A stretch of 64,000 bases of DNA. It comes from Amoebophrya sp. A120 (taxonomy: Eukaryota > Protista > Dinoflagellata). The notes beneath the pieces were generated by a model. The model worked only from the letters and a program-made list of their open reading frames with translations. It was not told where the DNA came from and ran no database searches. The stretch lies in contig CAJINV010000005.1 of NCBI GenBank assembly GCA_905178155.1, forward strand, positions 7,779,987 to 7,843,986, in the 5' to 3' direction. The position numbers and the translations under genes are program-made. Positions 2,546 to 64,000 of the stretch are shown here, in pieces (positions within the stretch are counted from its first letter, which is position 1; each line of letters opens with the position of its first letter).

Positions 2546-5500
2546 CTATCCTGACAGCATCCTTTCCAGTGGGTTTTGTTCCTCCAGCCTCCCGATCCGC
2601 GCAATGATCTCTTCAAACGCCGGCTTTGCCCGGGGCCGGACCATAAATTCCGCGTGTCCCAAATTCGGTAGCCACAGCACCGAGATTTTCGCGTTCTTCT
2701 TCTTCACCTGTTTCGGTATCTTGTCCCACCGGTTCTTCTTCTTTTGCAAAATCTCCGCCATTTTCTGCCGGCGCATTTCGCTGTGCGCGACCAAATGGGT
2801 GCGGATCGAGTGCGCGGGGATGATGGAATCCAACCCGGAGAGAATCACGTTGGTCGGAAACTTCAATTTCTCCGGCCACAAAATCCAACTTTGCCAAACC
2901 ATCCGGCGCGCCATCGACTGCGCTACGTGGATCTCTTTCGCGACAAAGTACTGGATCGCCGTTTGGATCCACGTTTTCGGCTCCCGGTAGACCATATTGT
3001 AGGCTATGTCGGGGGAAAACAGTCGGAAGCAGACCGGGTCGATCAAAGTGGCGTACGCGACTAGATGCGGTCGGCGTCGGATCATCCAAGCCATAACGAA
3101 GGTGCCGAAGGAGTGGCCAATGAAATGGGCCCCCGGGCAGCTGTCCGTGTTAAAAGTCGGATCTAGTTCGGCGGGGTTAGTTGAGATGTCGTTTCTACCC
3201 CCACTGGAAGACGACTTCCGTCGTTGTCCGCGACTGCCTTTGCTACTGCCCCCCGGTCGCTGGTAGTTGTAGCTGTCGTCAAAATCCAGGTCTGGGTTGC
3301 CCGTTCTTACGTCACGCGGTCTGTTGGTGTTCACGGTTCGCTTCCGTTTCTTGTTGCCCCTCTTGTTCGTCCGCGGAGTAGAGGCTGTCGCTTGTGCTGG
3401 TGAAGAAGCTCCTGTTGCCTCCGCTGCTGAATCGCGGGCAGCTGCCTGTGATGCTGGTGAGTGCTCGGGTTTGTAATGATGTTTGTGATGTTGGTTTTGC
3501 TGCTGCAGCTCATTCTGCTTGTGCCTATTGTCTGCCGGGTGGTTTCCGAACTTCTCCTTTAAAGAGAGCATGCGTTTCGTAAACTCAGCCTGGTTCTCCT
3601 TCAAACTTGCAGTTCCACCTCCTGTGGTCATAGTTGCACTATCCCTCGCCTCCCCTTCTGGATGGATTTGACCTTCCGGGGCTGATCGAAGGTTCTTCGC
3701 GTAGTTGTAGTTGTTCGCCGCGCCATCATAGTTGCTCCCGTTACTCGCATTAGAGAACCGCTCGCCCATCTCCAAAGGCTGCAGCTGCAATTTGTCTTCC
3801 CCCGAGGAGAATCCATTTTGGTTTTCATCATCGTCATCCGACCCTGATAGCTCCGATTCATCTTCCGACGTACTCGACACCTCGTCGTCCACCAAATCCC
3901 CCGGCATGTATCGTCGCCTCTCAAACGTGTCCCACAAGTTGAACGATTCGTAGTGGTGAGCCAGCATGTCCGCGATGCAACTCACCATTTCCCGGGCCGA
4001 CGCAATGTTCGCGTCAGAAATTCGACACGCGATTTGGTATCCACAGTAAATTTCCCGTACGCGTACAAAAACAAATGCGGTCTCTGCATGACAAAAATTG
4101 GCTTCGATCCTAGTTTAGCACGACGAGTTTTACTTTCCAAATTGGTGAAGTTTGTGATGCATCCTGTACACGTTGTACGGGAAATTTGTATTGCATATCT
4201 GGGGGATGTTAATCACGAAAATGTCCCGGTCCGGGTAATTTTTCACCAGTTCGAACAGAAATAAAACGTAGATGTGGGGCCCCAGGCCCAGACCGTGGCA
4301 GAAGACGAACGGGACGTCGTGATCCTTTCTCTTTGACGTGTTGTTTTCCTTTTTCTTCTTCCCCACAACCGGCTTCCTGACGTAGTAGCTCATGGTTCCG
4401 CTTATGTTCTCTTCAAATCCCAAGACCTTCTTCAGGAAGAAATCCCCCGCGAAGGGGATGACCAGTTGACTAATGCGGTTATGCATTGCAAATGCATACG
4501 TAGTCGTAGTAGTAATTGCATTTGCAAATTTTTCCGTTGGGACGAAAAGTGGAATTTGTAATGCTGGTTCGGGTATACAGACTCGGTTTGTCATGCATGG
4601 TTGCAAGTAGTACGAGCATGATGCTTTTGCACTGGATAACCGTAGAACAGGAACGACCGGGTGTCCGCCTGTAAAGGGTCGAGAGTCAACCGCATGGAGA
4701 CGATGTTATCGTTGTACCCCGGGCGGAATTTGTGCTGCAGCCACTGTTCAATCCGGTGGATCATCGTACTCGTCATGCGCCATTGCTGTTCGGGTAAGGG
4801 GAACTGCCGCTTCAGTTGCGAGGCACCATGACTACGGGTGGTCGCTGTTGATTTATTGCTCACCGCGCCAGCTTATCAAATGCAAAAACGTAGTCTGGGT
4901 CTGGAAGGTTCTGAGACTTGTCACGCATGTTTTGCATGACCCAGGATTGTTTGTGATGCATGCCCTACCATCACAGACTTTTAGAACCCTTCCTGATGCC
5001 TACTCCGCATGACAAACGCCCACCTCCCCGCGTAGCACAAACTAGACTCCTCTTGCTGGTCATGCAGTACAGATTTTTTTAGAGTCCAAAGTTAGCATCA
5101 CAAGTTCCAACCGTCCAGACCCAGACATTTTTGCATTTGATACAGCTAGTGCGTTATTCATTTCTACTCCGCTGCTTCCAAAAAGTGTCAAATCGTTTAT
5201 CGCCTGCGCTTCCTCCCCGTGTTCCAAATGCAAATGATGGACCGACACTTTCGTCACATCGTAATCTGCATTCAAAAACGCCCAGGCGAGCCACTCCCGC
5301 ACGTTCTCGCGGCCGATGTCGTACAGCTCCACGATCTCTTCATCCCCGTCCGAGGGGACTAACCCAATCGACCAGTTCCAAATCGCTCTTCGGAAGCTCG
5401 GACAGATTGTGGTTTTCATCGTGAACAGTGCGTTGTATGAGAGTGCACAACCCCGCCTCCCCCTCATTTGAAGGTCATAGATAAGCAGCAACACAAGTGC

Positions 5501-8500
5501 TGGCATGAATGCAGCTTTTGCATGAAAAATTCGCGACCGATTCTAGTGCTGTTTCGGCTTCCAGAACCTGTCATGCAAGAAGTGCCAAAGAGAAGAGGGT
5601 GTAGTTTTTGGGTTTTTGCATGACAAATGAGGGGGAGGGGGAGTTGTGCACTGTCATACGTTGGACAGCTGTTTTAAAATCGCAATCGGGTGGATCTTAC
5701 TCAGTAGAGCCGAGGAACTTCTGGACGACAGTTCATGTCCATCATCTTCCCCATACAGATCAACGCCAGCCCTTCTATCGTAGAACAAATGGTCCCGAAA
5801 GGATTTCAAATCCGTATTTCTCGCCACGTTCTTCTTGTACCGGAACCAGCCACAGATCTCCAGAGGCTTCAGCGCCTCCATAGCCTGCTCGTTCATCAGC
5901 TGTGGGTCTAGCCCCGTCGCGTCAGAAGCGGCCATCGCGAGCGAATTCCTTGCCCTCGGCAAGCGGTTGACGGAATTTTGGTTGGTCACCGTCAATTTCC
6001 CGCTATTCAGCTCCCCGTCCTCGTAGTCAGAATTATCGAGGACCTGGATGTGGCTTACCATTCCGTTATTCGAAGTCGACCCCTCGAGGTCTTCGGTTTG
6101 CATCGCTTCTCTCAGCGCCTTTTCTATCCCCGCGTGGCCGGCAGTAGAGGTTCGCCGGAGCAAAGCCCCGACGCCCGAATTCGATCGGGTCAACAATCTC
6201 GGCCGGGACGCCGATTTTCCTTTTTGCTGCAACGCGAGAATTCCGATTTGGTGCTCCGACGCTGCGTTTTTGATGTTGTTTTTCAGCTGTTGCAGGTTTT
6301 GATTACTATTCACCGTGTTTAAGCTGCTTTGCGCCCGGCGTAGTTTCAGTTTCCGACTCATGCCCCCCGTTGCTGCGGCGGTTAGCGCGAGTTGCGTGAA
6401 GGATTTTATGGCGTTCTCAACTGTTACATTCCCGACTGTTACATGAATTTGTGAAGCAAGAATTGCAAAAGAAAAGTGAAAGGGGGGAGGTTGCACTTCT
6501 AGCATTACAAGTCCTGCACAGATTTAGGTGCTGTTTAGCCCTTTGCAAATTTGTCATGCGAAGCAGCTTTCTCGTGTGGATCTCGATGGTTGTTCTGCAT
6601 GACAAGTTCATGTAAGAACAGTTGAGAATGTAACAGTTGAGAACGCCATAGATTGGACTTTTTGGTCGTAGAGGACTTGCACGGCGGATTGGGTAGACTC
6701 CGTGGACATGCGAGGGGTTAGTAGCGCAGGACCGCCGTTTATCGCACGAAAAAACTGTCTCACCGTGAACTTGTGATGCAGAAAACGAAGCGCCACAGTG
6801 TTTGTCTTGCTACACCTGCACGACATTGGATTTTCAAGCGTGTTTTCCCTTGGGAAACGCGCATGCCAAATTTTCGGTGTCATGTGTAACAAACTTGTGA
6901 TGCGGTTTTTGCAAAGTCATCACAGTGAAACAGTTTTTCCATGGGATACCGTTTTGTTCTATGTGCAGATTGGAAGAACCATTCGGCGATACCGATGCTG
7001 AACCTCCCTGTAGTCCCGCGTCTATCGAGTTCGCGAAAGACGAGCCTTGGTCGATAGTTGCCTGCTGAATCACGACGGTCTGAGTATTGGTCATCGTGAA
7101 AGAAGCAGCAGACAAACGTCCAGGGGGTCCTCCTAGGTGGGCATCAAAACCTGCAGTCGTGTATCCGCCGATTGTTGCTTCGTTTTTTTCCAACACGTCC
7201 TCCTTCGTTTCTAGCTCGACCTCATGCCCTTGTAAAAGCAAGTACCCCATTTGCACGTCGTTGACCGCTTCTAATTCTTGCTCTAGCTGGATCAAAGACT
7301 CTTCCACCGGAACCCGAGGCATTTCCACCTTCTGGTTATTAATCTTCCACAGTTGGTATTTCTGGTAGAAGAGAAACGCAAGCTCCAAAATCGTGTAGAA
7401 GTTAAACAGCTGGGCAAGAAGCTCGATTCTGCTCTCCGTAAACACGTGTTTTTTCAACTTTGGATGGTTCCGGAGGAAATCGGGGATGCGGAAAATTCGC
7501 TCCTCCAGAATTTGCCCAAAGAGGTTGAGAACCTTGATGTAGGACTTTGCGCCGGCGGTCAAGGCGCGCCGGAGCTCGAGGGCCAGGAGCTGTACGGTAA
7601 TTAATGTGTGATGACTTGACTTTGGTAGCGGCGACAGCATGACAAACTGATGTAGTCTGCAAATGCAGTATGTACGCAAGACAAGTTGATCTTCATTCAA
7701 AAGAAAATAAACGCAGAAAATAAACGTTGAAAATAAATCATACCATTCCCAACCCGTTGCTCCCTCCAGCACTCTTCCCGTTCTGCACGGCCAAGATGGT
7801 CGGCTTATGGTCTATCCAACCGTCTCCGACGGCGCCGTCGTCGTCTTCGATATCGGGCAATTCCAATATCGCCTCCATATCCACCCTGCTCGTCCCCGCC
7901 GCCGGGTTGCTACCGTCTCCGCCTCCATTCGCCAGACTCGAGGAAAAGAAAATCTTCCCCAGCCCCCGGAGCACGATCGCGAACCCGGATTTTTTGGAAA
8001 AGAAAACTTGCTTCAAATTTCCGCGGTTCTTCAGCCACTTATGGGCGTGTCAGGATTGAAATCGTCAAAGTTGAAATAGTTTGTCATGCGTAAACTGCAG
8101 CCCACAAAGTGCCTGTCTTGTAGAGTAGGCAAGTGAGGCAGATTGTGAGCCTGTTGAGGACTAGAACTAGAAGCGGAGCTGCTAAAGTAGCATGACAAAA
8201 GGCGTCTTCCTTACCCAAACAGCATGACAAACGGGATTTCGGCTCTACCCAAATTTGTCATGCGCCAGTTGGAAACTGGGTTACAACTTTCATCCAATTT
8301 ATGCATTACAAGTCATTTCAACTTTGTCGATTTCAATCCTGACACATCCATACCACTTCGAGAGCCAGTACAGAAGCGAAACGAACGGGCCGAGTTTGAA
8401 GGGCGCAATGAGAATATGCCAGAAAAAAACTGTGTAAGTGTAACTCTGTAATGCAAAACATGCAACAGAGTTACACCTGTCATGCCACACAGCCATGAAG

Positions 8501-8725
8501 TCCTTTTTTCGTGTGTATTTTCCCTTACAAGCCACGCATGACAGGTTTTCTCTGTCATGTAGAGCAAATTTGTGATGCTGTTCCTCAAAGAAAGTTACAC
8601 TAACACAGTTTTTTTCTTGGATAGAGAAAGAGCTTGATTAACAGCGTGAGGATTTTGTTCACGATGCCCTGCGATGGGACAGAACTGCCGCAGTTCTCGG
8701 CGAGCCGGAGAGGGCGGGTTTTCAT
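2546..8725 (-). CDS. Alpha/beta-hydrolase fold protein (10 exons; 8 introner introns + 1 GT-AG intron)
   Basis: Spliced frame is continuous from MKTRPLRLAE (8725) to the stop at 2546. Motifs: PFVFCHGLGLG (oxyanion), GHSFG nucleophile elbow, DPVCF, LSGLDSII (acid), LGHA (His). Hydrophobic N-terminal segment. Confidence 0.85.
4038..4197. mobile_element. Introner family F
   Basis: TIR; DR tttgg/tctgg; frame restored. Confidence 0.85.
4480..4638. mobile_element. Introner family E
   Basis: TIR; DR gcggt/accgt; frame restored. Confidence 0.8.
4874..5142. mobile_element. Introner family A
   Basis: TIR with GTCTGGGTCTGGA; DR cagct; frame restored. Confidence 0.9.
5436..5658. mobile_element. Introner family I
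   Basis: TIR TATGA(G/C)AGTGCACAAC; DR cgttg; frame restored. Confidence 0.9.
6407..6650. mobile_element. Introner family B
   Basis: TIR TATGGCGTTCTCAACTGTTACATT; DR gattt/gattg. Confidence 0.9.
6740..6948. mobile_element. Introner family C
   Basis: TIR; DR ccgtt; frame restored. Confidence 0.9.
7590..7743 (-). other. Canonical GT-AG spliceosomal intron
   Basis: Minus strand GTATGA...ACCGTACAG; removal joins GLGM|LLALELRR in frame. Confidence 0.7.
8040..8352. mobile_element. Introner family D
   Basis: TIR with GTCAGGATTGAAATCG; DR ccact. Confidence 0.9.
8415..8623. mobile_element. Introner family C-like
   Basis: TIR; DR gagaa. Confidence 0.9.
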
Positions 8726-9033
8726 CTTCTTTATGAGGTTTTATTTTAGTCGCAAGTTAAAGTTCTTTCATCCCGGCAATATACCAGACAGCGAGCCAGA
8801 GGGTCCTCGTCGTCCCTTTCTGCTCCGGAAAAGCAGAGTGAGTCGTAATTGTAAATGGTGTCCGTGAAGATCATATCATAAGTTGTGGAATGGTGGTCCT
8901 GCGATAATTCGTAACCAGGTCACAGTAGGTTTCTCCCGAAGGCGAAGACGACATTAACAAACTCCGAAAGTTTTTCAGCCACACGAGTCTACTTCGGAGA
9001 GAACCAACTGCTCTCGCCAGGCGTGCTAGTCGA

Positions 9034-11935: not shown

Positions 11936-14900
11936 TTACAAAAACAAAAGAAAAATACGGCCTCCGGTCGCGGGGTACAATTCGTTCTGAATCAACGCGT
12001 CCTTCCAAGAAATCACGTAGCCGGTCTTCTCTTTGGGTTTCATGCACCCCTTGCGGCAGCAATTCAAGTCGGTTTTGCAGACAGCGTCGCTGTCCCCATG
12101 GTTGTCGCACCACGTGACTACCGTGCCCATAGAACCAGCCCCATGTTCGGGAAAATACGCGTCCGGATTCCGCCGATTCTTTTGGTAAAAAGGCCGGCTC
12201 TCTTGGTCCGCGTTGTGCGAACCGCACGCGACGTTCTCGCACTTCGGCCAACACCACGTGTTATCGTAGTACCGCCCGGTTCCGTAGCTCGGTGCGCTTG
12301 CCGGCCAAAGGTGTTTCAGCACAAGCGGGACGCTCCCGTCGTTGGCACTAATGTGCCGCAGTTCATCCAACCCCGGCCTGCTTGTGCACGCCGTGCACTT
12401 CTGCGCGTGCGGGGCCGGGCAGTTCGTGAGTACTGGATCTAATGTACCCCGGGTACAAATGCACTTCGGGTGACAACCATTCGTCGGGTCCTCTTGCAAG
12501 TTTTGGTTCACCCCGCTGCATTTAAACCGCAAGCCTGTGTTTGTTTTTGCTTGGAAATCCACGGTGTTGCAGGAGAAAGAATCGGAGAAGTACACCGTGG
12601 CGCTCGCGGACTTATTATGCATTGCAAATATGTCTGGGTCAGGAAACATGTAAACTTCTGATGCGCATTTGAGACAAGACAAAAATCTGTCATGCATGAA
12701 ACGCAAAAGTTGCTCATTTCTTGTCACCAAAAGAGGGGTCTTGTCATGCGGATTAGGCATCCTCGCCTAACCTGCTCAAAACCTGCGTTGCTAGGACTTG
12801 CATGCTAGACCTTCTGTGTCATGCACAAACAGCATCACACTCTTCCAGACCCAGACATATTTGCATTCGATACTTATCCTCACCGTGTAAATTCCCACTT
12901 GCCCGAAACCCGCCCCCAGGGTAAAACGCCGTATTTATGGCGTTCTCAAACGTTACAATCTCAACTGTTACACGATTTGTCATGCAAAATCAACATCAAC
13001 ATCCACAGGGTGAAGCGACTTCGCATGACAAATTCCCGGAGGGCTAAACAGCATTTAAATAAGTGCGGAATATGTAATGCTAGAGGCGCAATTGTCCCCC
13101 TTTGACTTTTGCTATTCTTGCATTACAAATTCATGTAACAGTTGAGAATGTAACAATTGACAGTCCCATAGTATTCTTCACCAGCTTGTCCCAATCTTGA
13201 CTCGGGTATTTTTGCCCGTTGATAACGTACCGGACCAAAACCGATTGCGAACTCGATGGCTTCTTACACCCCTGAATGCAACAGGTATTTGTGTCTGCCG
13301 CATTCCCTTGGCAGTCATTGGTTGCGCAGAGAATTCCGCCAGCATTCGGTCGTTGCAAATACCGATCGGCCTTGCTCGTATCCGTTTGGCAGGCTCGTCC
13401 GTAAAAGCACTGCTCCCGACACCCAGTTAACGCCAACCCGTTCTTCGGAGCGTTGCAGGCGTAATGGGCTGTTCCGGTGTGCGTGGAAGCGCAGACCAGG
13501 TTGCTGCTCGAGGTACGCGCCTTATCGCAAGAAAAAACTGTTTCGCTGTGAACTTGTGATGCAGAAAATAATGGAACACAGAACTATTTGTCTTGCTACA
13601 CCTGCATAGAGCATTGGAGTTCCAACCGTGTTTTTCCCTATGGGAAAAACGCGCATGGCAAATTTTCTGTGCCATGCGTAGCAAACTTGTGATGCAGATC
13701 TTGCAAAAACATTACAGTGAAACAGTTTTTTCTCGTGATACGCTTGCGCGTCAGGCGGGGCCGAGTCCAACAGGTTCCGCCACTTCGCGTTGCTCGAGAT
13801 TACATAGCCTTTCGGCACAGTCGTCACGGATTTTCGGCACCCGCGCCAGCAACAGACATTGTCCCGGTCCCCCGCGCCCGAGCACAACGGGTTCCCGCAC
13901 TGACTGTTGACCCTCGCTGGGTTGGCGGAATAGAAGTGGTCCAGATTGGACGAAGAGGTTATGAACTGTAAAAGTATCGCACTCGTATAAATGCATTACA
14001 AATTTCCTCAGCATGAGACATAAAATTTGTAATGCGGATTTGGCTTCAGAACAAAATTTGCGAACGCATGTTTGCAATTACTACGAGTACGATACTTTTG
14101 CACAGGATAGAGGTGAAGCCAGCACAAAACCCCCGATCCGATTCCGCTCGCGAGCAGGTTTCCGTGCAACAGGTGGCACGATCTACTGCGTTGTGGTCGC
14201 CACCATTGATGAATGAACTGCAAAAGTATAGTATCGCACTCGTATAAAAAATGCATGACAAATTATTCCCTCAGCATGAAAATCATATGCGGATTTAGCT
14301 TAAGAAAAAAGTCTGTAATGCGTAATTGCAATTACTACGAGTACGATGCTTTTGCAGTTCGTATGATGTCCCGGAAACACGGCCAGGACACGCACTGGTA
14401 GTTTTGCGGCGAGCTCCGAACTTTGAACCCGGTGTGCACCTGGTTGGGAACCCCGCTGAACCCGGTCAATTGGCACGCCGCACCCTGAGTTCCCAAAGAC
14501 CTGCACTTCATCGCGCAGCATGTCGCGGTGTCGTGATTTATCCTGAGTAAAAATCTTCCCACACCAGAGTCAAGATGGAAAATCCACTAGACAAATCAGC
14601 CACCTCTGGTTGTTTCGCATGACAAGGTTATCCTCGTAGAAGTGGAATCCTGTTTAGCTAGTTCCGAAGCATCACAGACGTAGCATATCATGCTCATGCT
14701 GATTCTAGCATCACAAATTCCACAACATGATTAGATTTGAAAATGGCTCTCGTGGGGCTCTGCATGAGAAACTTTTTTAGCATGCAGATTTGCATGACAA
14801 CTCTGGGGTGGAGACATTTTTCCTCAGGATATGATTGCGCGAATGTTCGCACACGTTGTCCACGCAGGTATGGTATGCATTGCGAAAGCATCGTACAACT

Positions 14901-17900
14901 AGTAGTGATTGCAATACAAATTCCCTCCGCATTAGAAGAAATGGAATTTGTAATGCGGATTTACCGTAACATCTGGATTTGTAATGCATAACTGCAAACA
15001 GTACGAGTCCGATGCTTTTGCATTGCATATATCGGCCAAATTCGCGGCGTCCCGAATTCCCGCCCAGCCGCCCCAGCTTATCAAATGCAAATATGTCTGG
15101 GTCTTGTCATGCAGCTTTTGCATGACCCATGAGGTCTGTGATGCATGCCCTAGCAACAGAGATTCTGCGAGGGCTTTCTGATGCTCCTACCGCATGAGAA
15201 ATGCCCTCCCCGCGTAGCACAAATTGCACCTCTTTTGCTGTTCATGCAATATAGATTTTCTGTAGAGTCCCAAAGCAGCATGACAAGTTGCATCCTTCCA
15301 GATCCAGACATATTTGCATTAGATACAGCTCTTGCCCTCACAATGGCCCTTGGGAGCCGAGTGGCCGCATATGACCTGCAAAAGTATCGTACTCGTAGTC
15401 ATGCATTTCTTAAGGTAAATCCGCATTACAAATTTCATTTCTCATGCTGTAATGCTAAATCATATATACGAGTGCGGTACTTTTGCAATTCATACTGCAC
15501 TTCATCAAACAGCATTTCTGCTCGTCGGCCGAGTTGTAGCCGCCCACGCAGCGATTTTTGCCGCAGTGCCCCGCGTTCGTATCAAAAGTAAAAATGTCTG
15601 GGTCTGGTGGAAACTTGTGATGCTGGGTTGCGTCTCATGATGAGGCTACAATTGCTGGCTCAGCATGACAAGTTTCTGAGCTCCTAGGTGTTCTTGCCTA
15701 TTCTGCATGACAAACTGCGCTTCTGCATCTTCACAGAAAAACGGAGCTCTTGGGTATTAACGTGCATGACAGATTTAAGAGTCATGCCAGACAAGCATGA
15801 CAAACATTCTTCCAGACAAGAATTCTTCCAGACAAGAATTCTTCCTGACCCAGACATTTTTGCACTTGATAGTTCGGCTTCAATTGCAAGTTGCCGGAGC
15901 CATTGCAGGCGTGGGCGTGGTATGAATTGCAAAAGTCTCGTACTCGTATTGCAGTCATGCATTACAAGTCTTTTTCTTAAGGTAAATCCGCATTACAAAT
16001 TTGGTTAACAGACCAGAATCTCAACGTTCTTGTCTCAACGTTCATGAGGCCGACGGGCAATCGTCTCAACGATTGCCCGGCGGCCCCAAACAACGCTCGT
16101 CGGCAGCGGCGGAGAGGTACGCCAGCCGGCCGGCCGGGGAGGTCGGCCGGCCGGCCAGCGGCGGAGAGGTCGTCGTCGTCGGCCAGGGCAGCCGCCGCCG
16201 GCCGGCCGGCCGGCGGCGGCTGCCCTGGCCAGCGACCAGAACCCCAAACCCTAGACCCTAATCCCTAACCTAAACGGTGCCGAAGTTGAGGCGTCGGTGT
16301 CAACGTTGGGGCGTTTTGTCTCAACGTTGAGACAAATTGGCGTGGTTGAGATTTTGGTTTGTCAACCAATTTTATTATTTCTCATGCTGAGGAAATTTGT
16401 AATGCATTGATACGAGTACGATACTTTTGCAATGCATACGTGGTTGCAGGTCTCCCGGCACCCGTCTATTTTCACTTCGTCGTTGGGGCCCAGACACCGG
16501 TACACCGCGCCCGCGGAGTTCCCGCCGATTGAAACGCTGGTCTGCCCCGTGCCTCATATGGAGCTCCCAAACGCTACATTCTCAACTGTTACATGTACTT
16601 ACATGAGTTTGTATGTAATGCAAGAATGGCAAAAGTGAAAGGGGGAAGCAGCTTGCGCCTTTTGCATTACAAGTTTGACGCCGATCCAAAAGTTATCTAG
16701 CTCGTCGAGAACTTGTCATGCGAAGCAGCTTGATGATGTAGATATCGATGGAGATTTTGCATGACAAATCAGGTAACAGGGGAGAATGTAACGCTTGAGA
16801 ATCCCATATCGCAGCGGAGCATGTTGTTGTTCCTCGTCCAGCCTGCGTTGTTGTCCGGCCGGGCGTCAGCAAGCAGGTCCTTCCAGTTCGCGAGCTCCAT
16901 GGATTTTCCCGGTATTGCAAGGAAAAATCCACCCTCCCCACATTGAAAGCGCATCCGTCTGAAAATTTGCGCCGCAGATTTCTGTCTTGCAAGAGGGCAA
17001 ACGTAGAGAATCCGCCGCGTTATGCAGGCACTCTGTCATGCTGTAAGGCCTACAGGGCAGACGTCTGCCATGCGAGACACCTACACCAAAAGGCCCCTGC
17101 CTAGGCCTACGATCTGCGTGCAGTCCTGTACCGCAAGACAGGTTTGATTTCTGTACACAGATTGCGCATCACAGATTTCCGTTTTGATGTGGGGAGGGGA
17201 AGTTTTTCCTTTTGATACCCGGTAGCGAGTAGCCGTACCGGGTGTTCCAGCTGATGCCTCCCCCACTCTGCGTGGAGGACCGTATGGATTGCAAATATGT
17301 CCGGGTCTCGAAACTTGTAATGCTGAACGGTCATGATTGAGTGCGCCTGTAAGTGCAGTGAAGCATGACAAATTTTTCGAACGCTTTCTCATGCGCAGCA
17401 CGCATTACAAACTGCGATTTTGCATGAAAAAAACGGGATGCGTTTGCTCTTGACTTGCTGCTTATGCAATACAGATTTTCCAGGAGTGCGAGACATGCAA
17501 TACAGGATCAACCTTTCGTTCCAGACCAAGACAAATTTGCACTGGATAGACCACGGCGCGGAGCAACCCTTATCGCAACACGTGCTTACGTCGACACCGT
17601 ATGAAAGCCTCAGAACGGAAATCCTCAAAGTGGAAATAATTTGTGATGCATGAAATGCAAGGCAAAAAAGAGTGTATTGCAGAGGACACAACGGAGACCG
17701 ACTGTTGTCCTGCTAGGGGTGAAGAATTGGAATGCTGCTTAGCACGAGAGAAGGGCACCCCTTTGCCTTAATCTGCATGACAGACATGCTTTAAGGGCCC
17801 GGTAGATTTGTCATGCGCCGACTACACATGGCGTCTGAACTGGAATCGCTTTTTTGCATTACAAATTATTTCCACTTTGAGGATTTCCAACCTGAGGGCT

Positions 17901-53787: not shown

Positions 53788-56400
53788 TTTTGAAAAAAAG
53801 TTGTGTCTGCTTTCAGGATAGGACTAGGTCACGATTTTCGACGAAAACCATAACCGATACAAGTTGGATATGAAGCACTTCGACTAGATATTTGACCGGA
53901 ATAGATGACAAATAGATGGTTTTTGTAACTTTTGTGTTTTTTTTTTTGATCTTTCGTTGGAGTTTAAAGACATTCAGATTTCTCACATTGATTCCGTGCA
54001 TCTGGTACCTGCGACGATCAACACTGCACAACGAAGCTTCACTAAAGCGCACAACGAAGCTTCTCCAAGCCTGCTGCTTGGGCAATGTCATGAAAAATCA
54101 AAACGCAAAACATTTTTTGCATGACACATCAGAACGGCATGCGTTATGCTTTGCGCTACACTCCAGTAGCATGGTCGCGTTGCAAATTCCAAACACGTCT
54201 TTATTTTTGCACTCCATAGACTGGACTTGGGGCACACGCGCAAGAAATGAAGTAGGTCGGCAAAATCGTGCATCGACTGCCAGGCGAGCTGTATTAAATA
54301 AAGTGCCATCATATCATGATGAGTAGCCGTGACCGGCGGTACTGCAAAGTAGTTGTAAGTAAAAGAAAATGGAACCCACAAAATAAAAGCCTGAGCAGCA
54401 CTACCTAGTATCAAACTATTCGAATCTCGTAAGAAGATCTCCAACTCGTCCGCGGACGGTGGCAGCTAAAGAAAAAAGAAAAAAGAAGAAAACTGTACCA
54501 AATCCCCCAACTTGTCCAAACTCTCTTCCGCCCCGTGCCGGCAAGCGTGGAGGTGCTTCTCCAATTCTCAAACAGAAAACCTGCGCAACCTGCGAAACAG
54601 CATGATTGCTATTCACGATTGATAGCCGTTTTGAAGGGTTTCATGCTGTACATTCCCTTTTTCTGACATTAGGTCGGTGCAAAAACACAAAATTGATACA
54701 TGATGACGATCGCAATCACCAGGCTGCGTAGTGCCAAAAGTTTCTTTTGGTACTACGCAGCGCCATGCTGTTTGAGCGCCATGCGTGTTGTTCATTTCAT
54801 ATCAATGCCTTCAACGTGTGCAGTTTGAAGACATTGTTTTCAACATTTTTTAAGTCCACCTTCGGTTCAACAAGGTTCTTGGAAGAACCACCTCGTTGAT
54901 TTTGAAAAAAAGTTGTGTCTGCTTTCAGGATAGGACTAGGTCACGATTTTCGACGAAAACCATAACCACATTACATTAACTAGCAAAATTTCGACACTTT
55001 GAGCAATATGCATTATGACAATATGACAATATGACATTATGACTGCTGGATTTTGAGCAAAATGACCGGAAGGTGTCGAGTGTCGGAACCCGGAAGCGGA
55101 CCTGTGTTGTTTTTTGGAATGAAGATAAAAAATGTTCCTACAAAACGGCTCACGATACGAGCGCACTTCATGCATGTTTCCTGTGCTCTATGAACTTTTG
55201 TGTCGCCCCCGCGTGGTCCCCCTGCAGACCGGTAAGCATCACGCCGAGCGGGTGCCATTATGCGTCGAAAGTTAATATGTCCGAGCCTGGAAGAGTGTAT
55301 TTGTGCACTTGGTGCGGATTCTGGAATGACTGAAATCTGTGATGCGTTGTCAGCTCTGCATGTGCTGTTTTTGTCTCCAGGAGAGGTCATTTCCCGCCCA
55401 CGCTAGGCACTAGGAAACACCAACCGAGTCTCTTCAATGCTTTTCATGCATGAAAGAGGACCTGTGTGCACATGCAGCATCAGAAATCACATGGCGAACG
55501 TTTGCTCTCTTCCAGGAGACCCAGACATATTAATTTGCACTTGATACCTCCCTCCCTCCCGTTGCAAAAATATCGCGCCCATTCCAAACAAAATAAAAGG
55601 AAGACCACAATCCAACACCGCAGCGCAAATCTTCATGTTGCTTTCTCATCGCGCAAATCTTCACTCATATTGTTAGTTTGACTTCTCATCGTTTTTGGCC
55701 TGGAATTCTGAAAGCGCCCAAGCATCCGATGCGCTCGAGAAAATTCTGCTTCTTTCAGCAAAGTGGGTTCGCTTGTTGTTTAGAAACGTAGAGACCTACA
55801 AACCAAGGGCTTTGCCTGGTTTGCACACTGAGACTTTCAGAACTAGCGCCTCGACTACAAATTGTTTGTTGATTTTCAAAAAATGCTTGTGCTAGAACCT
55901 TGAAAAAATAGTGCGTGGAGTCATGTTGACTCTGGGCCCTATATAAATCTCAACAAGACGAAGATAGGAAAAGGCCCAGAAAATAAAAACTCACTATGGG
56001 ATCGGCATTCAGACCAGATTTAGTTTTGCTTCCAACTACGTTTATTTATATTTATAAAATCCCCTCGAAGCGGAGCGGCCTTCTCACAACCTCTCACCCT
56101 TCAGCCGAACTTCTTTCCATCAGCATCCCGGTCGCCCTCTTCGGATTCGGACTCCTCGACCCGCCGAATCTTATTCCCGTCGACCTGCACGTTCCTTACG
56201 ACCCTAACCCTTTTTTTTGAACCGCCGCCAGCTGTGGCGCCGCCAGTGGGTCCTCCGGTCACGTGGCCGGCGGCTGCAACCTCCGCGCCGCGACCTGATT
56301 CAGAGGGTTATGTATCTTGCTGCACGTATCTGACTGCAACACTACCCGCAGAGGATAGGACTAGGTCACGATTTTCGACGAAAACCATAACCGATACAAG
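53788..56400. repeat. Three dispersed copies of a 45-70-bp repeat (~53788, ~54900, ~56352)
   Basis: AGGATAGGACTAGGTCACGATTTTCGACGAAAACCATAACC. Confidence 0.8.
55259..55546. mobile_element. Degenerate A-family element outside any traced CDS
   Basis: AATATGTCCGAGCCTGGAAG...AGACCCAGACATATTAATTTGCACTTGATA; DR lost. Confidence 0.6.
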
Positions 56401-56541
56401 GACGATTTCAACTATTGGTAGCTTGTTTCACCGTCGACAAGAATCTATTTGTGCTCATCATGGCCATTCAAAAAAAAACAACTGCTCCTAGCATTTCTTG
56501 ATCAATTATCTTTACTCTGGATGCAATCAAAGGACCGTCTC

Positions 56542-59500
56542 CTACGCCGCCTTGCTTCCGGCTCCGAACGCCGATTTGCTCCCACCACCAAACGCCGCCT
56601 TTCCCCCTCCAAAAGCCGACTTACTCCCGCCGCCAAACGCCGCACTGCCGCCGCCAAACGCCGACTTACTGCCCGCCCCACCGCCGAACGCCGCACTGCC
56701 GCCGCCAAACGCCGACTTACTGCCCGCCCCACCGCCGAACGCCGCACTGCCGCCGCCAAAGCCCGCTTTGCTGCCGCCTTGAAACGCGGAGGAGCCACCG
56801 CCGAATATTGTGACGAAAAATTTCCCCTCCCCATATTGAAAGCGCCTCCGTCCGAAAATTTGTGATGCAGATTTGTGGCCACAAATCCTGTCTGTCTTGC
56901 AAGGAGGCAAAGGCAGAGAGTCCGCCGCATTATGCAGGCGGTTTGTGATGCTGTTGGGCTTACAGCATAGACATTCGTCATGCTAGTCGCCTACAGCAAA
57001 ACCTCTCGCCTCAGGCTTGGCATATGCCGGCAGTACTCTCCAGCAAGACAGACCTGATTTGTGTACGCAAATCCAGCATGGGAAACCTCGTTTCGATATG
57101 GGGAGGGAGGATTTTTCCCTTTGATACCGAACGCGGGTGCTCCGCCTCTGTCCGACCTTGCACTGTTCGGCGGCTCGGGCGCTGCTTTCGCCTCAAACCC
57201 GCCGGCGCCCTCGCCTTCTTGCGCTTCCACCGCTTCTTGGGCAGCCTTAATTTGCGCGATCCGCTTCGCTATGCATTGCAAATATCATCTCTGGGTCTGG
57301 AAGAGTTCGAATTTGTGATGCGCAGGCTACATCATGGCAAAATCTGTCATGCATGGCTAGCAAAAGGCCGCAGTTTCTTGTTACCGAAAGAAGGGATTTG
57401 TAATGCGGATTAGGCATTGGGGTACTACCTGCTCAGAATCTGTGATGCTAGAGCTTGCATGCCAGACGATCTGGGTCGGGCAAAAACTGCATGACAGATC
57501 TCGCATTCTTACAGACCCCAAGAACATATTTGCATTCGATATCCGCCTCCTCCCGTTTCCGTTCGAGTTCCTCCTTTCTCAACGCTCTCCTGTGCAAAAG
57601 CATCGTCTTTAACTTGTATTGCAAACATGCATCACATCAGAAAAAAAAATTCCAATTTTGTTAAGGTAAAAACGCACGCCGTTCGTGCTAATTCGAGTCA
57701 TTTTAGTGCAAAACTGGTCTTGTTAAGTCAAAAACAACAAAAACGACGGAAAAGCGCACGGCGGGGCCACTTAGTTAAGCGCTAAAATTGCCCCCATGTG
57801 CGAAAATGCGACAAAAAAACGAAAAAAGTCGCGAACTGATGAAAGTAACGACGTAAGTGCGCATAAGGGCACATTCGCAAAGAGCTGCGAAATTCGAAAA
57901 AAAGTGCCAACTTTCTTAAGGTACAAACGCACCTTTTTGGTGCTAATTCGACTCATTTCACTGCAGAACAGGCCTTGTTAAGTCAAAAAGAACGAAATAA
58001 ACGGAAAAGCGCACGGCGGGGCCACCTAGTTAAGCCTAAAAATTGCGCAAATTTGCCAAAATGCAAAAACTAAGGCGGAAAGGGCGCAAATTTCTTAAAA
58101 TAAGCACAAAAGTGCGCCACTTTGCGCATTCTCCAAAAATGCGCAAAATCGCAACAAGGCGCGCGCCTATGATTTTGCAGCGGTTCGCAGCGCGTTGGCG
58201 CTGTCGCACCCGTAGAGCTAACTCCCGACAGTTTGGTCGTACTTAGGACCACAATGCGCCAAAAGAGCTCCCATCAGCTCAAAAAGGTGCGCAAATGCAC
58301 CAACAGACGCAAACTAAAGCAAAAACGGTCGCAAAGCCATCGAAATAGGCGCAAAAGTGCAACGCTTTGCAAATTCTCCAAAAAGGCGCAGAAGCGCGAC
58401 AAGGCGCGCGCCGATGATTTTGCAGGAGCAAGTCCGCAGAGCGGTGGCGCTATCGCATCCGCCAGGTCGATTCCAGATAGTTTGGCCGTTCTGAGGACCA
58501 AAATGCGCCAAAAAAATTCCTCCAGCTTAAAAAGGCACAAAAACGCGACGAAGTGAACAAAATACGGCAAGCAGGCGGCGAAAATAACCAGCCCCAGGCA
58601 GTTTGTTCGTTTTTAGGCCCAAAATGCGCCGGAAAAGCTCCGCATAGCTCGAAAAGGCGCAAAAACGCAACAAAATGAACGAAGTACGGCAAAAAAGCAG
58701 CGGAAAGACACCCAAAAAGGAAGACGAAGGCAAAACATGGACAGCGTTGCCACTTTTAGCGTAAAACCTTAGCAACCGCGGCGCCTCTCATGGATGCTTG
58801 GTAAGTCGGCGCTGGCACTGCAGCGCAGCAAGGATAGTAAGTCCACAAATGCAGACAAGGAGCGAAAAACGCCGCCGCGTCACTGTTCTGCGCCCTGAAG
58901 TGAAGATAAACGCCACACGACCAACGCGCGAAACGAAAAACGCCAGAAAATAAAATGCCCGCAACAAGAAGCAGGCCGCTGGCTGACACGCCGAACCGGC
59001 CTCCGGGGTTGCATTACATGGAAAACCAACGAAGAGCCTCACTTGGTGCTAATTCAGGGCGCTTACGCGAAGCAGTCGCGCCACTAGCTCTGGAAGCAAA
59101 GTGCGAAAGACACAGCCGGCGCCGCGTGGTTTGCCCCGCGAAAATTTCGACACGAAAAAGAGGAACGGGGCGCCAACTGCAGAGGCGGGCTGCTCTTCAT
59201 GTTCCTACTGCCATAAAATAGCAAAAATGCAAAAAAAGCCCCGGCAAAATAAAGCACAAAGCGCCACGGAGCCGCGCGCCTTAGCTCCGACATGGAGACC
59301 CGCGCCGCGCGGGCAACATAAAAAACGCACAACACCCCAAAGGCGCCCACGTCAGCACGCGAGCCGGTGGCGGGGAAAACGAATCGCCTGCCGAGGCTAC
59401 ACTACACGCAAAGAAAGAAAACGCCGAAGGGGCAGGGCAAAGTCAAGCCTTTCGCGAACATGGGGAGGGCGAAGCCCCCCGGCAGCGCAAGCTTGCGCGC

Positions 59501-62500
59501 GCTGCAAAAATTAAAAGTGTTTCTCTTTTCATTTTTTCAAATATTCATCACCTAAAATCTCGGGCGGTGCTCGACTCAAATCTCTTGGGGAGTACTCGTA
59601 GTAATTGCAATAATGCATTACAAATCTCCATCCCAAGGTAAAACAGCATGACAAATTCCATTTGTCATGCTGAGGTAATTTGTAATGCAATTACTACTAG
59701 TACGTTGCTTTTGCAGTTCATAAACGCTTCCAGCTCCCGAATTTCCTCCCACTTCGGGTGCTCGCGTATGGATCTGTCAGGATTGAAATCGTCAAAGTTG
59801 AAATGATTTGCCATGCATAAAATGCAAGACATGAAGCGCCTGTCTTGCCGGGATGACAAGTGAGGCAGATTGTGAGCCTATTTAGGGCTTGGAATAGAGC
59901 TTCTAAAGGAGCATGACAAAAGCAGTCTTCTGTGCCCAAACAGCATGACAAATTGGATTCCGGTGCTCCAAAAATTTGTCATGCGCCGCATGGAAATTGG
60001 GCTTTCAACTGGTATCCATTTTATGCATGACAAATCATTTCAACTTTGTCGATTTCAAACCTGACGCTTCCATATCGCGCAGCTCGCCGGTAAATTTGTG
60101 CCGGTTGATGTAGAGGAGGGTGAGAATCAGCCAGAAAATCTGAAAACCGAGCAAATACCGCACGCCCGCTTTCCAGTGGTAGCCGGGTCCGTCGCTCCAG
60201 ACCGCCAGGGCGTCACACCAAGTGCGATTGTGGAGGAAGGATTGTCCGAGCTTGTAGGTGATCTCGATGTCTTCATAGTCGTAGTCAAATGAATCCCCTT
60301 TCCCAGCGAGCGTGTCGAAAACGGTGTTTGACGACGAGTCGCTTGAAGATTCTGTTGCTCCGCCAGCGTCATCTTCAGTGTTGCTTTCTACAGCCTCCCC
60401 GACATCCTCATCAGCAGCAGCAGCGTCCTCTGCGTCTCCTATGGGAGTGTCAGGTTTGAAATCGTCAAAGTTGAAATAGTTTGTGATGCAAAAAATGCAA
60501 GCCACAAAGTGCTTGTCTTGCTGAGTAGGCAAGGGAGGCAGATTGTAAGCCTGTTGAGGGGTAGCAATAGAGCTGCTAAAGTAGCATGACAAAAGGCGTC
60601 TTCCTTACCCAAACAGCATGACAAACTGGGTCTCGGCTCTTCCCAAATTTGTCATGCGCCACTTAGAAACTGGGTTGCAACTGGCCTCCATTTTATGCAT
60701 CACAAATTATTTCAACTTAGACGATTTCAAACCTGACACCTCCATATCTCCCGTTGCAGAAGTATTATTTCCGTCGTCTTTCTCTGTTTGTAGGAGGGCC
60801 GCGGCCCGAGCGTATCCTGTGCAAAAGTATCGCACTCGTTCGTATAAATGCAAGTCTTGCATTACAAATTTTTTTCTTATCGTAAATCCGCATTACAAAT
60901 TTTATTTCTCATGCGGAGGAAACTTGTAATGCATTTATACGAGTACAATACTTTTGCAGTTCATAGAGCGTGGTCTTCTACAACTTTCGTGGCTTTTGTC
61001 GACGAGTCGTCGGCTCCGCTACTTGGTGATGAAGATGATGCAGTTGGTCGTGACTTCTTCGACGTTTCGCCTCCGCGTTTTCTTTTTCTGTTGCTGGTTT
61101 CCTTTGTCTATGGAAGCGTCAGGATCGAAATTGACAAAATCGAAAAATTTGCGATGCATAAAATGCATGACGCGAAATACGTGTGTTGCAGAGCAGGCAA
61201 GTGAGGCCGATTGTAAGGAGCCTGTTTGGGGTTATAGCTCGAGCTGCTAAAGCAGCAGGAGAGAATCAGTCTTCTTTGCCTAGACAGCATTGCAAGCTGG
61301 ATTTAGGCACCGCCAGAATTTGTCATGCGCCACTTAGAAACTGGGTTCGAACTGGAATCCATTTTATGCATGGCAAATCATTTCGATTTTGTCAATTTCG
61401 ATTCTGACATTTCCATATTCTCCTGTCGCTCCTTCGTATTCTTGTTTCTTGCTTCAATCTCGCTTTTCGCCCGTTGTTCACGATTTCTACGAAGGACGAG
61501 CTACTGCTGAAATTAGTTGCACCCGCGCTCGCTGCAGCATCGGTGTTATTACTCGACCCGCTTGAAGATGATTCTTGCAAATTCGTTGTCGTGAAAACAG
61601 GGAGGAGAGTAATTTTCAAACTGTCGTTGTTCATGGTTTTGAGCCCTTTGTCCTTCTGCTCCTGTAAAATGTGCTTTCTCATGTACCGTTCCACTATGTC
61701 CTCCACCACCGCTGCTTTCCCCGTCGCCTGCAACACCTTGCTAATCGTTTCATCTAGATTCTTCACGTCCACATAGCTCACGTTCTGCAGCATGTTGGCC
61801 CGCTGCAGAACCTCGTCGGGTGAGTTCGACGCAAGATGGATTTGCAGCGCGAACCCGCCCTTGGGGGGGTCGGGTGGCGTTTCCTGGACCACGGGGGCTT
61901 GTTGTTCATCGGCGTCGCTACTGCTGGTAGTTGCGGCTGCTGCACTCCTAGCCGCCAATGAGGAGATGGAGCGTGATCTACTCCTGCTTGATGTTGCACT
62001 TCGCTCTACGAAGCTACTGCTTGTTCCGCTCCCGTTCTCTGCGCCGCCTGACGCTTGTTGATCATCACCACTGGCGTGGGTAACAGCGGACGGCGCCCCA
62101 GTTCCCTTGAAGTGGCCTTCCAGCACGGTGATGTAATTCCCCTCCGAGCTTTTATTTCTGGTATTCTGCCTCCTTTGCTGCAGCCTACTTGAAGTTCTTG
62201 TTCCGCCGGCGGCTTTTGTCTTTCTACTTCTGTCTCTTCGCCCAACGCTATGATGTTTCTTGTCCGCAAAATGATGAAGCAGCGAGTCCGCTCGGGAAAG
62301 CTCACTGCGGATCAGCTTGTCCACTCTACCGTCTCCTCTACTTTCATCGGAGCCTATCGTAGTCTTTGCGTGTTCATTCCTTTCCCGGAAAGACGACGCG
62401 AAGGCTGCCGCAGATGAAGTACTGCTCAGAGATGAAGTAGCAGTACTATCCTGTGCAAAAGTATCGCACTCGTAGTAATTGCGATCATGCATGACAAATA

Positions 62501-63462
62501 TCCCTTTTTAGGTAAATCAGCATTACAAATTCCATTTTTCTTCTTGAAAAAATTTTTTGTGATGCAATTTATACTAGTACGATAACGATACTTTTGCAAT
62601 GCATAAGTACTAGACAATGACAAGGACAAGCTGCTGCTGCTGGAATTACTCGCTCCTACCGCGTCCGAGCCGTCCTCTCCAGCAGCCGCCTCTTCGCTGG
62701 CAGCACCTGTACCTGAACTTTCCCCACCCCCTCCAGCTAGCCTACCATTCAAACTGGCTTCCATGGGCCGCATCATGGTAGTCTGGTTGGTGTTTGTCGC
62801 TGTGCTTAAGCTTACCGCCTGCAACTCCGTTATCGCGTCTTCGGCGACCACCATCCGCATGCTGAAGCTGCTCGCGTGCGCGGGAAGTACTTTCGCCTGG
62901 ATCACCTTCGGCTCCGGGAAAAGAATTTCCAGGTCCTGGGCGGTTTTGTTCTGAATAATCCGGTTCTTCTTCAAGTACACACTCAGCGGGGACGCAAGCG
63001 GCAACGGTGTGCTTTCTGCGCGGGCGGTCTGTCTGGACGAAAAGGAAAAACTGCTTCGCATCCGCTGGTTTTGCTTTGCAGTACTGCGTCGGCTTTTGTT
63101 CGTAGAAGTAGTTTCTTCGAAGAATGAGAGAGACGTGTCGTTCGTACTACTAGCACTTCTACCGGGTAGTTCTCCTTCGTAGACTAGACTAGCACTACCG
63201 GCTTCTACTCCGCTCGTAGTGCTAGACGTAGTTGTAGAAGTAGTTCCTCCTTCCCAATTTTGAAAATCGATATGCATTGCAAAAGTATCGCACTCGTATA
63301 AATGCATTACAAATTTTCTCAGCATGAGAAATAAAAGTTGTAATGCGGATTTACCTTGAGAACGAGATTTGTAATGCATGACTGCAATTACTACGAGTAC
63401 GATACTTTTGCACAGGATAATCGACCTCCCCCTGCAAAATCGATTCGTAGGGGACCGTGCTC
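56542..63462 (-). CDS. S/T-rich single-pass membrane protein with coiled-coil and SAFGGG-repeat tail, 5' end beyond window; 10 introners
   Basis: Frame restored at 9 complete junctions. TM YLLGFQIFWLILTLLYI, then REHPKWEEIRELEALRKEELERKREEAERIAQ, then GSAAFGGGAGSKSAFGGG repeats to the stop at 56542. Confidence 0.75.
56806..57126. mobile_element. Introner family H
   Basis: TIR; DR ccgaa. Confidence 0.9.
57270..57541. mobile_element. Introner family A
   Basis: TIR; DR ttcgc/tccgc. Confidence 0.88.
57586..59722. mobile_element. Introner family E with ~2-kb nested insertion
   Basis: TCT...ATA ends; DR aacgc; joins ELEA|LRKEE. Confidence 0.82.
57650..59590. mobile_element. ~2-kb unclassified repetitive insertion within an introner
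   Basis: Separates the halves of E introner 57586-59722; internal ~120-bp direct repeats (57661-57780 / 57916-58035); ends not defined. Confidence 0.5.
59767..60074. mobile_element. Introner family D
   Basis: TIR; DR tcgcg. Confidence 0.9.
60440..60746. mobile_element. Introner family D
   Basis: TIR; DR tctcc. Confidence 0.92.
60813..60965. mobile_element. Introner family E
   Basis: TIR; DR gagcg. Confidence 0.92.
61109..61417. mobile_element. Introner family D
   Basis: TIR; DR ttgtc/ttctc. Confidence 0.9.
62447..62605. mobile_element. Introner family E
   Basis: TIR; DR agtac. Confidence 0.9.
63271..63419. mobile_element. Introner family E
   Basis: TIR; DR atcga. Confidence 0.92.
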
Positions 63463-64000
63463 TATCACGTGCAAAAGTGTCTGGGTCTGGAAGAGTTGGA
63501 ACTTGTGATGCGAATTCTGGAATAGGCAAAAATTTGTATTGCATAAGCACCAAAAGCTTCCCATTTCTTGCTACGCAAATAGGGAATGTATTAAGGTCGC
63601 GCCCGGAGGGCGATATTGGTAACCAAATGCGTGCGCGAAAATCTAAGCAGCGCGAAGGCCCACCAACCTTTTTCTAACATCGCCGCGGCCCGCGCCGCGA
63701 AAGCGCGGCCTCCTGGCCAGCAAGCCAGGAAGCCGCGTGGCCAGGAAGCTATGTGGCAACAACTACTGTCGCCCGCGGCGGCGCGGACAACTACTGTCGC
63801 CCGCGGCGGCCCGCAGGCTCCTGCGATAAGCATTGAAGGCGAAATCCGGTCTGCTATTTCGCAGCGGGGCATCCTTTCTAGCCCCCTGCATGACAAACTG
63901 GCCTCCTGGCCAGGAAGCTATGTGGCCGGGGGGGGGCAAGCCCCCCCCGGACCCCCCCCATCCACTTTCGCAGCGGGGCACTCTTTCTAGCCCCCTGCAT
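63463..64000. mobile_element. Introner family A, left half only (interrupted, runs off window)
   Basis: TATCACGTGCAAAAGTGTCTGGGTCTGGAAG start. Confidence 0.75.
63589..64000. mobile_element. GC-rich repetitive insertion in an introner, truncated by window end
   Basis: A-family similarity stops at ~63588; internal duplications, e.g. 63857-63891 / 63966-64000. Confidence 0.5.

Follow-up and report, generated by a model that had tools for sequence, protein, structure and literature searches.

We analyzed a 64,000-nucleotide stretch of the Amoebophrya sp. A120 genome (GenBank assembly GCA_905178155.1, contig CAJINV010000005.1, positions 7,779,987 to 7,843,986 of the forward strand; hereafter, the window). 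It contains genes interrupted by introners – short elements bounded by terminal inverted repeats (TIRs) and removed as introns – together with one GT-AG intron and a Copia-type long terminal repeat (LTR) retroelement. An initial annotation, made from the sequence alone, had proposed that all introner families of the window share an internal motif, TTGT(C/G/A)ATGC, as a recognition code for a single trans-acting factor. How the tens of thousands of non-canonical introns of Amoebophrya spread and are spliced is open in print, where the elements are split into about 2000 families; the site described here spans the families that we examined.

Introners of the window and their removal from transcripts

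With few exceptions, the elements of the window start with TAT and end with ATA. They have imperfect TIRs of ~25–60 bp and are mostly 125–365 bp long. We curated 60 of them, delimited by their ends, as the window set (15,157 bp in total). A pattern scan of metagenome contigs provided 155 loci (L001–L155), of which 146 belong to one assembly that has the same families. Nine of the 155 (from other records, with one motif match each) and three contained duplicates were left out before counting, and four further overlapping loci were left out of the counts of motifs outside elements, of GTAT and of GT/AG ends. One L042 protein is 99% identical to an A120 protein, and the transcript-like contigs that we used (runs X3 and X5, one sample; their RNA nature is presumed, not recorded) show 0 differences to the window and about 97% identity to L035. 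The locus assembly thus comes from a sister strain rather than from an independent lineage. Together, window and loci contain 419 elements in 69 clusters.

The elements are flanked by a 5-bp target-site duplication (TSD), which is exact in 327 of the 424 copies mapped without a TSD filter; TAT...ATA termini are present in 383 of the 424. After TAT, which the search used had fixed at end positions 1–3, and seven variable bases comes a run of A (frequencies 0.74, 0.87, 0.78, 0.68 and 0.75 at positions 11–15). These ends fit the description in PMC7789003; the elements belong to the known A120 type of non-canonical Amoebophrya introners.

Contigs of X3 and X5 skip each element plus exactly 5 nt, and one GT-AG intron as well; X1 contigs cross element ends without a difference. 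Removing each element plus 5 nt leaves a stop-free frame of 1390 amino acids (aa) in one gene (eight elements and the GT-AG intron) and likewise restores frames of 1514 aa and 771 aa in two more genes, which have 10 and 6 elements, respectively. In a fourth gene, with 27 elements, removal raises the longest frame from 276 to 947 aa, after which the frame breaks. Mismatched duplications bracket the junction in three cases: after TSD base 3 or 4 at window position 4480, after base 2–4 in L035, and after base 4 or 5 in L042, where the junction comes from an annotated A120 protein. From these we infer that the RNA is cut after TSD base 4, which makes the intron N-TAT...ATA-NNNN. There are no fixed splice dinucleotides: with this cut, both GT and AG occur in 7 of 246 oriented copies, and an element intron reads GT-AG solely when G and AG come from the target. 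Where the target ends in AGG, an introner becomes a perfect GT-AG intron (L042:9984-10249; compare window 7590-7743).

Elements occur in both orientations relative to genes. Most families are unbiased in this respect; among loci L001–L155, family c3 (family E of the window) has a host-gene orientation bias of 18 versus 6. The element at 20662-20955 has TGT...ACA in place of TAT...ATA, a matched change at both ends, with an exact TSD. In two tandem introners at 43118-43618, one 5-bp target recurs three times, suggesting that insertion took place at a neighbor's duplicated site. Of run X9, whose RNA comes from a different relative, 109 partial reads aligned; reads of this run match the family J end at window 17600-17657 at 90–95% with another flank, so family J is present in another strain or species too. 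Two introners of the loci (L033:632-1465 and L024:505-1608) contain 0.5–0.8 kb inserts with no recognized transposase frame, and L021:2872-5877 holds two frames matching C-5 cytosine DNA methylase.

A shared internal motif, its spacing and its conservation

We counted the strict motif TTGTVATGC on both strands of the window, with 100 dinucleotide shuffles as the expectation, and found 151 matches versus 2.19 expected (maximum 7). The 60 TIR elements hold 137 of these, broken elements (959 bp) 10 and the other 30,767 bp of the window 4, with 0 in the 17,117-bp LTR retroelement. Scoring weaker sites by position weight matrix (PWM), we observed that all 11 TIR families of the window have the motif, as the initial annotation had stated: at least one strict copy is present in 56 of the 60 elements and PWM sites in the other four. 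Seven stretches of other repeats (five non-introner TIR-type, two LTRs) had 0 strict and 0 PWM sites, and a comparison with viral contigs gave no match. Extended to 12 bp, the consensus reads RRYYT(G/c)TV(A/t)TGC, with the 8-bp core TGTVWTGC. At least one such core – that of RRYYTGTVWTGC – is present in 416 of the 419 elements of window and sister assembly. Outside the family that defined the scan, the loci contribute 207 elements; 184 of these carry a strict copy and 206 have a PWM site, with 393 strict matches versus 1.1 after shuffling. The variable position V is T in just 4 of 247 sites. The motif resembles the center of the Sox-Oct site of animals and also RBFOX UGCAUG, a likeness that we set aside.

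The motif had also been described as rare in exons, intergenic DNA and the retroelement. This holds for the remainder of the window and for the retroelement, but the motif is not restricted to intact introners, as some GT-AG introns carry it. No motif sites were found in 8 of the 13 GT-AG introns examined (7 protein-defined and 1 contig-defined; 6 from L042, 1 each from L009 and L035), so the motif is not a general intron mark of the genome. A home-made GT-AG intron predictor called both strands and misplaced known ends, and its counts were discarded; a third protein search returned relatives of 44–51% only and was not used.

Sites recur at preferred distances. Same-direction sites lie 31–33 bp apart, or three helical turns, in seven of the eight body-homology groups defined below (p=0.0005) and 30–32 bp apart in 7 of 11 window representatives (p=0.002), with a mode of 31–32. 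The dominant gaps between sites in the window are 22–23 nt for direct, 37–40 nt for facing and 24–25 nt for back-to-back sites; facing sites cluster at 16 and 46–50 and back-to-back sites at 16 and 33–34. The emphasis of the initial annotation on facing pairs 6–12 nt apart did not survive counting: there are 0 strict-strict pairs of this kind, and 12 of the 151 strict sites have a relaxed partner, although the facing example given for 19813 exists as described, at 19812. Distances to the element end are also patterned. For inward-facing sites, this distance has maxima at 37, 46, 56 and 67 bp; hardly any sites lie closer than 35 bp or at 41–42 bp. The best phasing period is 10.25 bp (scanned 8–13; R 0.53, versus 0.48 at 11); Rayleigh tests on end distances, significant whatever the period between 9 and 12, do not single one out. 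Several families are asymmetric, the site at one end facing in and that at the other end facing out.

Across the 14 families with at least six members, divergence from the consensus is 0.061 in the core, 0.200 in spacers and 0.092 in TIRs; V drifts at a spacer-like rate (0.21). The core lies below the spacer in 14 of 14 families and changes 3.3-fold more slowly (Wilcoxon p=0.0001). Copy-specific change is 0.024 in the core, equal inside and outside confident open reading frames (ORFs), and 0.070 in spacers. Low mutability does not explain the conserved core, as spacer TG/CA and GC dinucleotides change at ~0.06. Binned by nearest neighbor, core/spacer ratios are 0.27–0.44 in all bins, a result compatible with selection before as well as after insertion. 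Paralogous insertions with common flanks, sought as a post-insertion clock, were not found.

The families had been called non-alignable. With motifs masked, 84 of 91 pairs of family consensuses share no body sequence (median z 0.3), as claimed, but seven pairs do (z>4); with these joined, eight body-homology groups result, and some modules have visibly been exchanged between elements. Such shared sequence is what descent of all families from a single ancestor would leave, with the motif an inherited sequence or mutational sink of no function. A core conserved beyond its spacers in mostly unrelated bodies shows inheritance without selection to be insufficient, and families aligning end to end with a motif that decays like its flanks were not observed. 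We consider this explanation highly improbable.

Table 1. Features of the window. Introner rows have "." as strand; site offsets carry > and < as in the analysis.
Feature	Position	Strand	Details
Introner, family H	4038..4197	.	160 bp; sites 53<,119>,153>; removal restores ORF
Introner, family B	4480..4638	.	159 bp; sites 81>,113> (direct 32); mismatched TSD, junction after base 3 or 4 (X3 record 9)
Introner, family A	4874..5142	.	269 bp; exact 5-bp TSD; 6 PWM sites
Introner, family I	5436..5658	.	223 bp; sites 57<,89<,137>,187<; X3 record 9 skips it plus 5 nt
Introner, family C	6407..6650	.	244 bp; sites 47>,100<,149>,195<
Introner, family G	6740..6948	.	209 bp; sites 36>,67>,126<,160>
GT-AG intron	7590..7743	-	154 nt, GTAT start; end pairing 4/20, no TIR left; two strong sites 39 apart; skipped in X5 record 17; likely a converted introner
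Introner, family D	8040..8352	.	313 bp; sites 46>,155<,187<,220>,268<
Introner, family G2	8415..8623	.	209 bp; sites 36>,67>,126<,160>
Introner, family A	12616..12872	.	257 bp; X3 record 12 skips it plus 5 nt
Introner, family C	12936..13170	.	235 bp; sites 46>,92<,141>,189<; skipped in X3 record 12
Introner, family G	13523..13740	.	218 bp
Introner, family B	13960..14109	.	150 bp; sites 38<,56<,72>
Introner, family B	14212..14363	.	152 bp; changed ends, exact TSD
Introner, family E	14539..14831	.	293 bp
Introner, family B	14874..15029	.	156 bp
Introner, family A	15079..15325	.	247 bp; carries 16-17 facing pairs
Introner, family B	15370..15494	.	125 bp
Introner, family A, second body type	15580..15871	.	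292 bp
Introner, family B	15921..16438	.	nested motif-free TIR-type insert ~16011-16368
Introner, family C	16557..16808	.	252 bp
Introner, family F	16913..17217	.	305 bp; 0 strict, 4 PWM sites
Introner, family A	17283..17548	.	266 bp
Introner, family J (clusters with D)	17600..17905	.	306 bp; sites 46>,180<,213>,261<
Introner, family A	17957..18213	.	257 bp
Introner, family H	18283..18441	.	159 bp
Introner, family C, diverged	18579..18830	.	left end TGT
Introner, family I	18969..19333	.	365 bp
Introner, family B	19534..19687	.	154 bp
Introner, family A	19771..20038	.	268 bp; contains facing example at 19812
Introner, family E	20106..20380	.	right end decayed, uncertain
Introner, family E	20662..20955	.	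TGT...ACA ends, exact TSD
Introner, family B	21035..21188	.	154 bp; sites 43<,61<,77>,108>
Introner, family G2	21241..21454	.	214 bp
Introner, family A	21527..21778	.	252 bp
Introner, family C	22256..22500	.	245 bp
Family C ends, exact TSD	22578..24300	.	enclose 1.7 kb insert; longest stop-free frame at most 139 aa
Introner, family F	24363..24687	.	325 bp
Introner, family A	24753..25018	.	266 bp
Introner, family B	25095..25251	.	157 bp
Introner, family D	25319..25640	.	322 bp
Left part of family A introner split by LTR element	25729..25903	.	
Copia-type LTR retroelement	25904..43020	-	478-bp LTRs, 96.9% alike; RVT_2 match; negative control, 0 strict motifs
Right part of split family A introner	43021..43112	.	
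Introner, family G2	43123..43353	.	231 bp; 0 strict, 5 PWM sites
Introner, family G	43359..43613	.	255 bp; TSD in common with preceding element
Introner, family B	43648..43803	.	156 bp
Introner, family D	43900..44206	.	307 bp; sites 46>,94<,127>,159>,230<,262<
Introner, family A	44277..44538	.	262 bp
Introner, family F	44555..44890	.	336 bp; single PWM site, ORF still restored on removal
Introner, family A	45012..45401	.	390 bp including internal insert
Introner, family C	45443..45758	.	316 bp
Introner, family A	46453..46715	.	263 bp; perfect 30-bp TIR
Introner, family A	47810..48077	.	268 bp
Introner, family D	48498..48807	.	310 bp
Introner, family E	49743..50022	.	280 bp; sites 36>,66>,115>,132<,148>,198>
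Decayed family A element	55259..55546	.	TSD lost; 0 strict copies
Introner, family F	56806..57126	.	321 bp; sites 59>,91>,142>,174>,242<
Introner, family A	57270..57541	.	272 bp
Family B element without left end	59585..59722	.	4 strict motifs
Introner, family D	59767..60074	.	308 bp
Introner, family D	60440..60746	.	307 bp; sites 46>,78>,149<,181<,214>,262<
Introner, family B	60813..60965	.	153 bp
Introner, family D	61109..61417	.	309 bp
Introner, family B	62447..62605	.	159 bp
Introner, family B	63271..63419	.	149 bp
Left half of family A element	63463..63595	.	

The 17-kb Copia-type element sits within a family A introner. Besides a DUF4326 frame, it holds two 1009-bp copies that are 99.9% alike (32086-33094 and 36549-37557) and two paired 1.2-kb repeats of TIR type (27067-28315 and 41301-42500).

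Readings of the motif array

On balance, we favor RRYYTGTVWTGC as a putative site on double-stranded DNA to which one shared transposase, supplied in trans, would bind, in the manner of the subterminal repeats in other cut-and-paste transposons. This reading rests on the common ends of the elements, the constant TSD, and the absence of the motif from other repeats and from the eight GT-AG introns without sites. Several protein units would sit along the array on one helical face, placing a catalytic unit at the TAT terminus. A copy whose sites are damaged would no longer multiply, so that ends and sites persist while the spacers diverge until families look unrelated. The enzyme may resemble an integrase, as has been proposed for A120 family 38 (PMC12130899; 5-bp TSD, TA/TA termini), and removal from RNA would rest on the TIR, with the cut after the fourth TSD base. 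A helix-phased site, common ends and a constant 5-bp TSD tie the families examined to one trans-acting DNA-binding factor. The earlier idea of a recognition code for a single factor thus stands in its outline – the motif is conserved, common to unrelated bodies and spaced at fixed distances – though without its stress on short inverted pairs.

Several observations weigh against a transposase binding site. No integrase or DDE transposase was found in 233 ORFs from ~0.6 Mb. The initial annotation had suggested looking for long elements with these TIRs and an ORF; three long candidates were searched, and none has an ORF of the integrase or DDE kind. In print, no transposase is reported for A120, and general mobilization by transposases is rejected (Farhat et al. 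2021, PMC7789003). Across groups, neither facing nor back-to-back spacings reach significance (p=0.27 and 0.29), and some family-specific spacings (18, 20 and 39) are off phase. In TSD-mismatched copies, the excess of change is 0.008 in the core (95% confidence interval −0.001 to 0.018) and 0.004 in spacers (−0.008 to 0.018), overlapping intervals that fit a transposase site and a host role alike. In predicted RNA folds of 70 copies, motif pairs with motif at a probability of 0.43, equal on both strands. The motif also persists where no element is recognizable. Outside BLAST-recognized elements it occurs 73 times versus a permuted-control median of 7 (~10-fold), with 8 of 14 direct pairs at 31–33 bp, which suggests that it is retained after mobility is lost; unsampled old families could account for part of this excess. 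Five contig-supported GT-AG introns – four from a stretch chosen for such matches, the fifth the window's own – keep seven strong sites with ends that pair at 4–8 of 20 positions, the chance level. Three of these five start with GTAT, as do many GT-AG introns that carry the motif, and such introns likely mark a route from non-canonical to canonical introns. Related counts are weak or sparse: GTAT lies upstream of stray motifs in 25 of 66 sense versus 16 of 68 antisense cases, the motif lies downstream of donors in 8 sense versus 5 antisense cases, and profiles anchored on donors or acceptors are too sparse to read.

If the motif instead acted in RNA, inverted copies would pair into internal stems that lengthen the terminal hairpin and help to draw the splice ends close to each other. 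The predicted motif-motif pairing just given, a predicted TIR pairing of 0.79–0.88 in the same 70 copies and the occurrence of facing sites 16 apart all fit such stems. Paired sites, however, show no covariation: partners match at V in 0.315 of facing pairs versus 0.317 expected and in 0.429 of back-to-back pairs versus 0.417. Changes that keep a wobble pair are not favored (core p=0.28, paired TIR positions p=0.29). The strongest spacing joins same-direction copies, which are unable to pair, and its mode is 31–32, not 33. Stems would also require complementarity, not one fixed sequence. On the transcript strand, the spacers of all oriented copies show 1.2-fold more C>T and A>G than G>A and T>C changes (p=0.003), likely a transcription-linked mutation bias. 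TIRs show an excess of G-U over A-C (287:228, p=0.011; 185:161 in the confident set), which we dropped as evidence for RNA structure since the spacer bias matches it. We regard an RNA role as improbable. Given the ~10.25-bp phasing, the same-direction repeats three turns apart, the lack of compensatory change and the presence of both transcript orientations, we infer that a protein reads the array as double-stranded DNA, in preference to a mark at the RNA level; in the modeled hairpins the motif may still take a passive part.

A reader of DNA need not be a mobilizing enzyme. A host DNA-binding protein, possibly a domesticated transposase, could mark the segment for co-transcriptional removal in place of the missing U1 small nuclear RNA (snRNA), and introners would then carry the array since only marked insertions are tolerated. 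This is compatible with a transposase site, and taken as a separate proposal we find it doubtful. U1 snRNA was not detected in A25 or A120 (PMC7789003), a site stands at a fixed distance from the element end, where the RNA is also cut, strong sites persist, at spacings of 31 and ~47, in the five GT-AG introns that have lost their TIRs and in old non-canonical introns whose ends have decayed, and the motif is enriched outside recognizable elements with the same 31–33 spacing. These relics were found via their motifs, though, and are a biased sample; eight GT-AG introns have no site at all, and the element at 44555 has one weak site, yet its removal restores the 1514-aa frame. Copy-specific core change is also equal inside and outside confident ORFs and of the order of TSD mismatch (90 in 377 x 5 positions), which fits near-neutral decay. 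Uniting both roles, one protein, transposase-derived or host, could bind the phased array, measure whole turns to the TAT...ATA ends and hand the nascent RNA to U1-less splicing. We think this unlikely; if it were true, these introns would be defined on DNA, and a single code would mobilize them, license their removal and persist in relic introns once mobility is gone. That the array acts as a chromatin or DNA-bending signal, such as a site for nucleosomes or architectural proteins that favors insertion or its tolerance and is read by neither transposase nor splicing, appears slightly less probable even than a role in RNA. A period of ~10.25 bp and family lengths near 110, 155, 210, 260 and 310 bp would suit it, but a length period near 52 bp lacks significance once the scan of periods is allowed for (p=0.15), intergenic stretches and other repeats carry almost no copies of the motif, and its phasing is tied to the element end. 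For the favored transposase site, the motif array offers a bait for pull-down and a signature for finding the autonomous element or its protein.

Comparison with known introners and transposons

The A120 introners of PMC7789003 share with the elements described here the TAT start, seven variable bases and A run, the TIR, the non-canonical ends, a short direct repeat across the junction and absence from transcripts. They differ in the direct repeat, which here is a constant 5 bp outside TAT...ATA. That paper divides the elements into 1954 families; the passages of it consulted (figures S19–S25 aside) give no internal motif, spacing rule or phasing, and no internal motif appears in those of PMC12130899 (figure S9 aside), PMC11282704 or PMC12005148. 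Literature searches on the motif and on Amoebophrya introner motifs returned no description, in agreement with the initial annotation. The elements are thus already known; within the literature searched, the shared internal motif with fixed spacing is new.

A120 family 38 is labeled Ginger, with a 5-bp TSD and TA/TA termini (Gozashti et al. 2025, PMC12130899 Dataset S7). It resembles the introners in these two features and is a candidate source of an integrase-like enzyme, but at ~808 bp with integrase-related ORFs it is unlike them, a comparison made by description only. Among Ginger2/TDD elements (Bao et al. 2010, PMC2836005), TDD-4 and TDD-5 show a 5-bp TSD, as here, whereas the Ginger TSD is otherwise 4 bp; TIR-bounded non-autonomous derivatives exist there too. 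Ginger termini are TGTNR, and those here are TATS.

The closest parallels to the array are the subterminal repeats of Hermes (hAT, PMC10368747), of Emigrant miniature inverted-repeat transposable elements, which are bound by Lemi1 (PMC1636448), and of maize Ds1 (PMC3260210). All have short repeated sites inside their ends that are asymmetric and phased to the TIR – in Hermes, a one-base shift impairs cleavage – and apart from such sites, their non-autonomous elements have little in common with the autonomous one. Those repeats are bound cooperatively, whereas the array described here is known from sequence alone. It also has a longer site, spans at least eight groups with differing TIRs and bodies, and lies in elements that are introns, with a TSD of 5 bp versus 8 in Hermes and Ac/Ds. 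As in subterminal repeats generally, the introners have several repeats inside their TIRs that are conserved over spacers, phased to the element end and asymmetric between the two ends.

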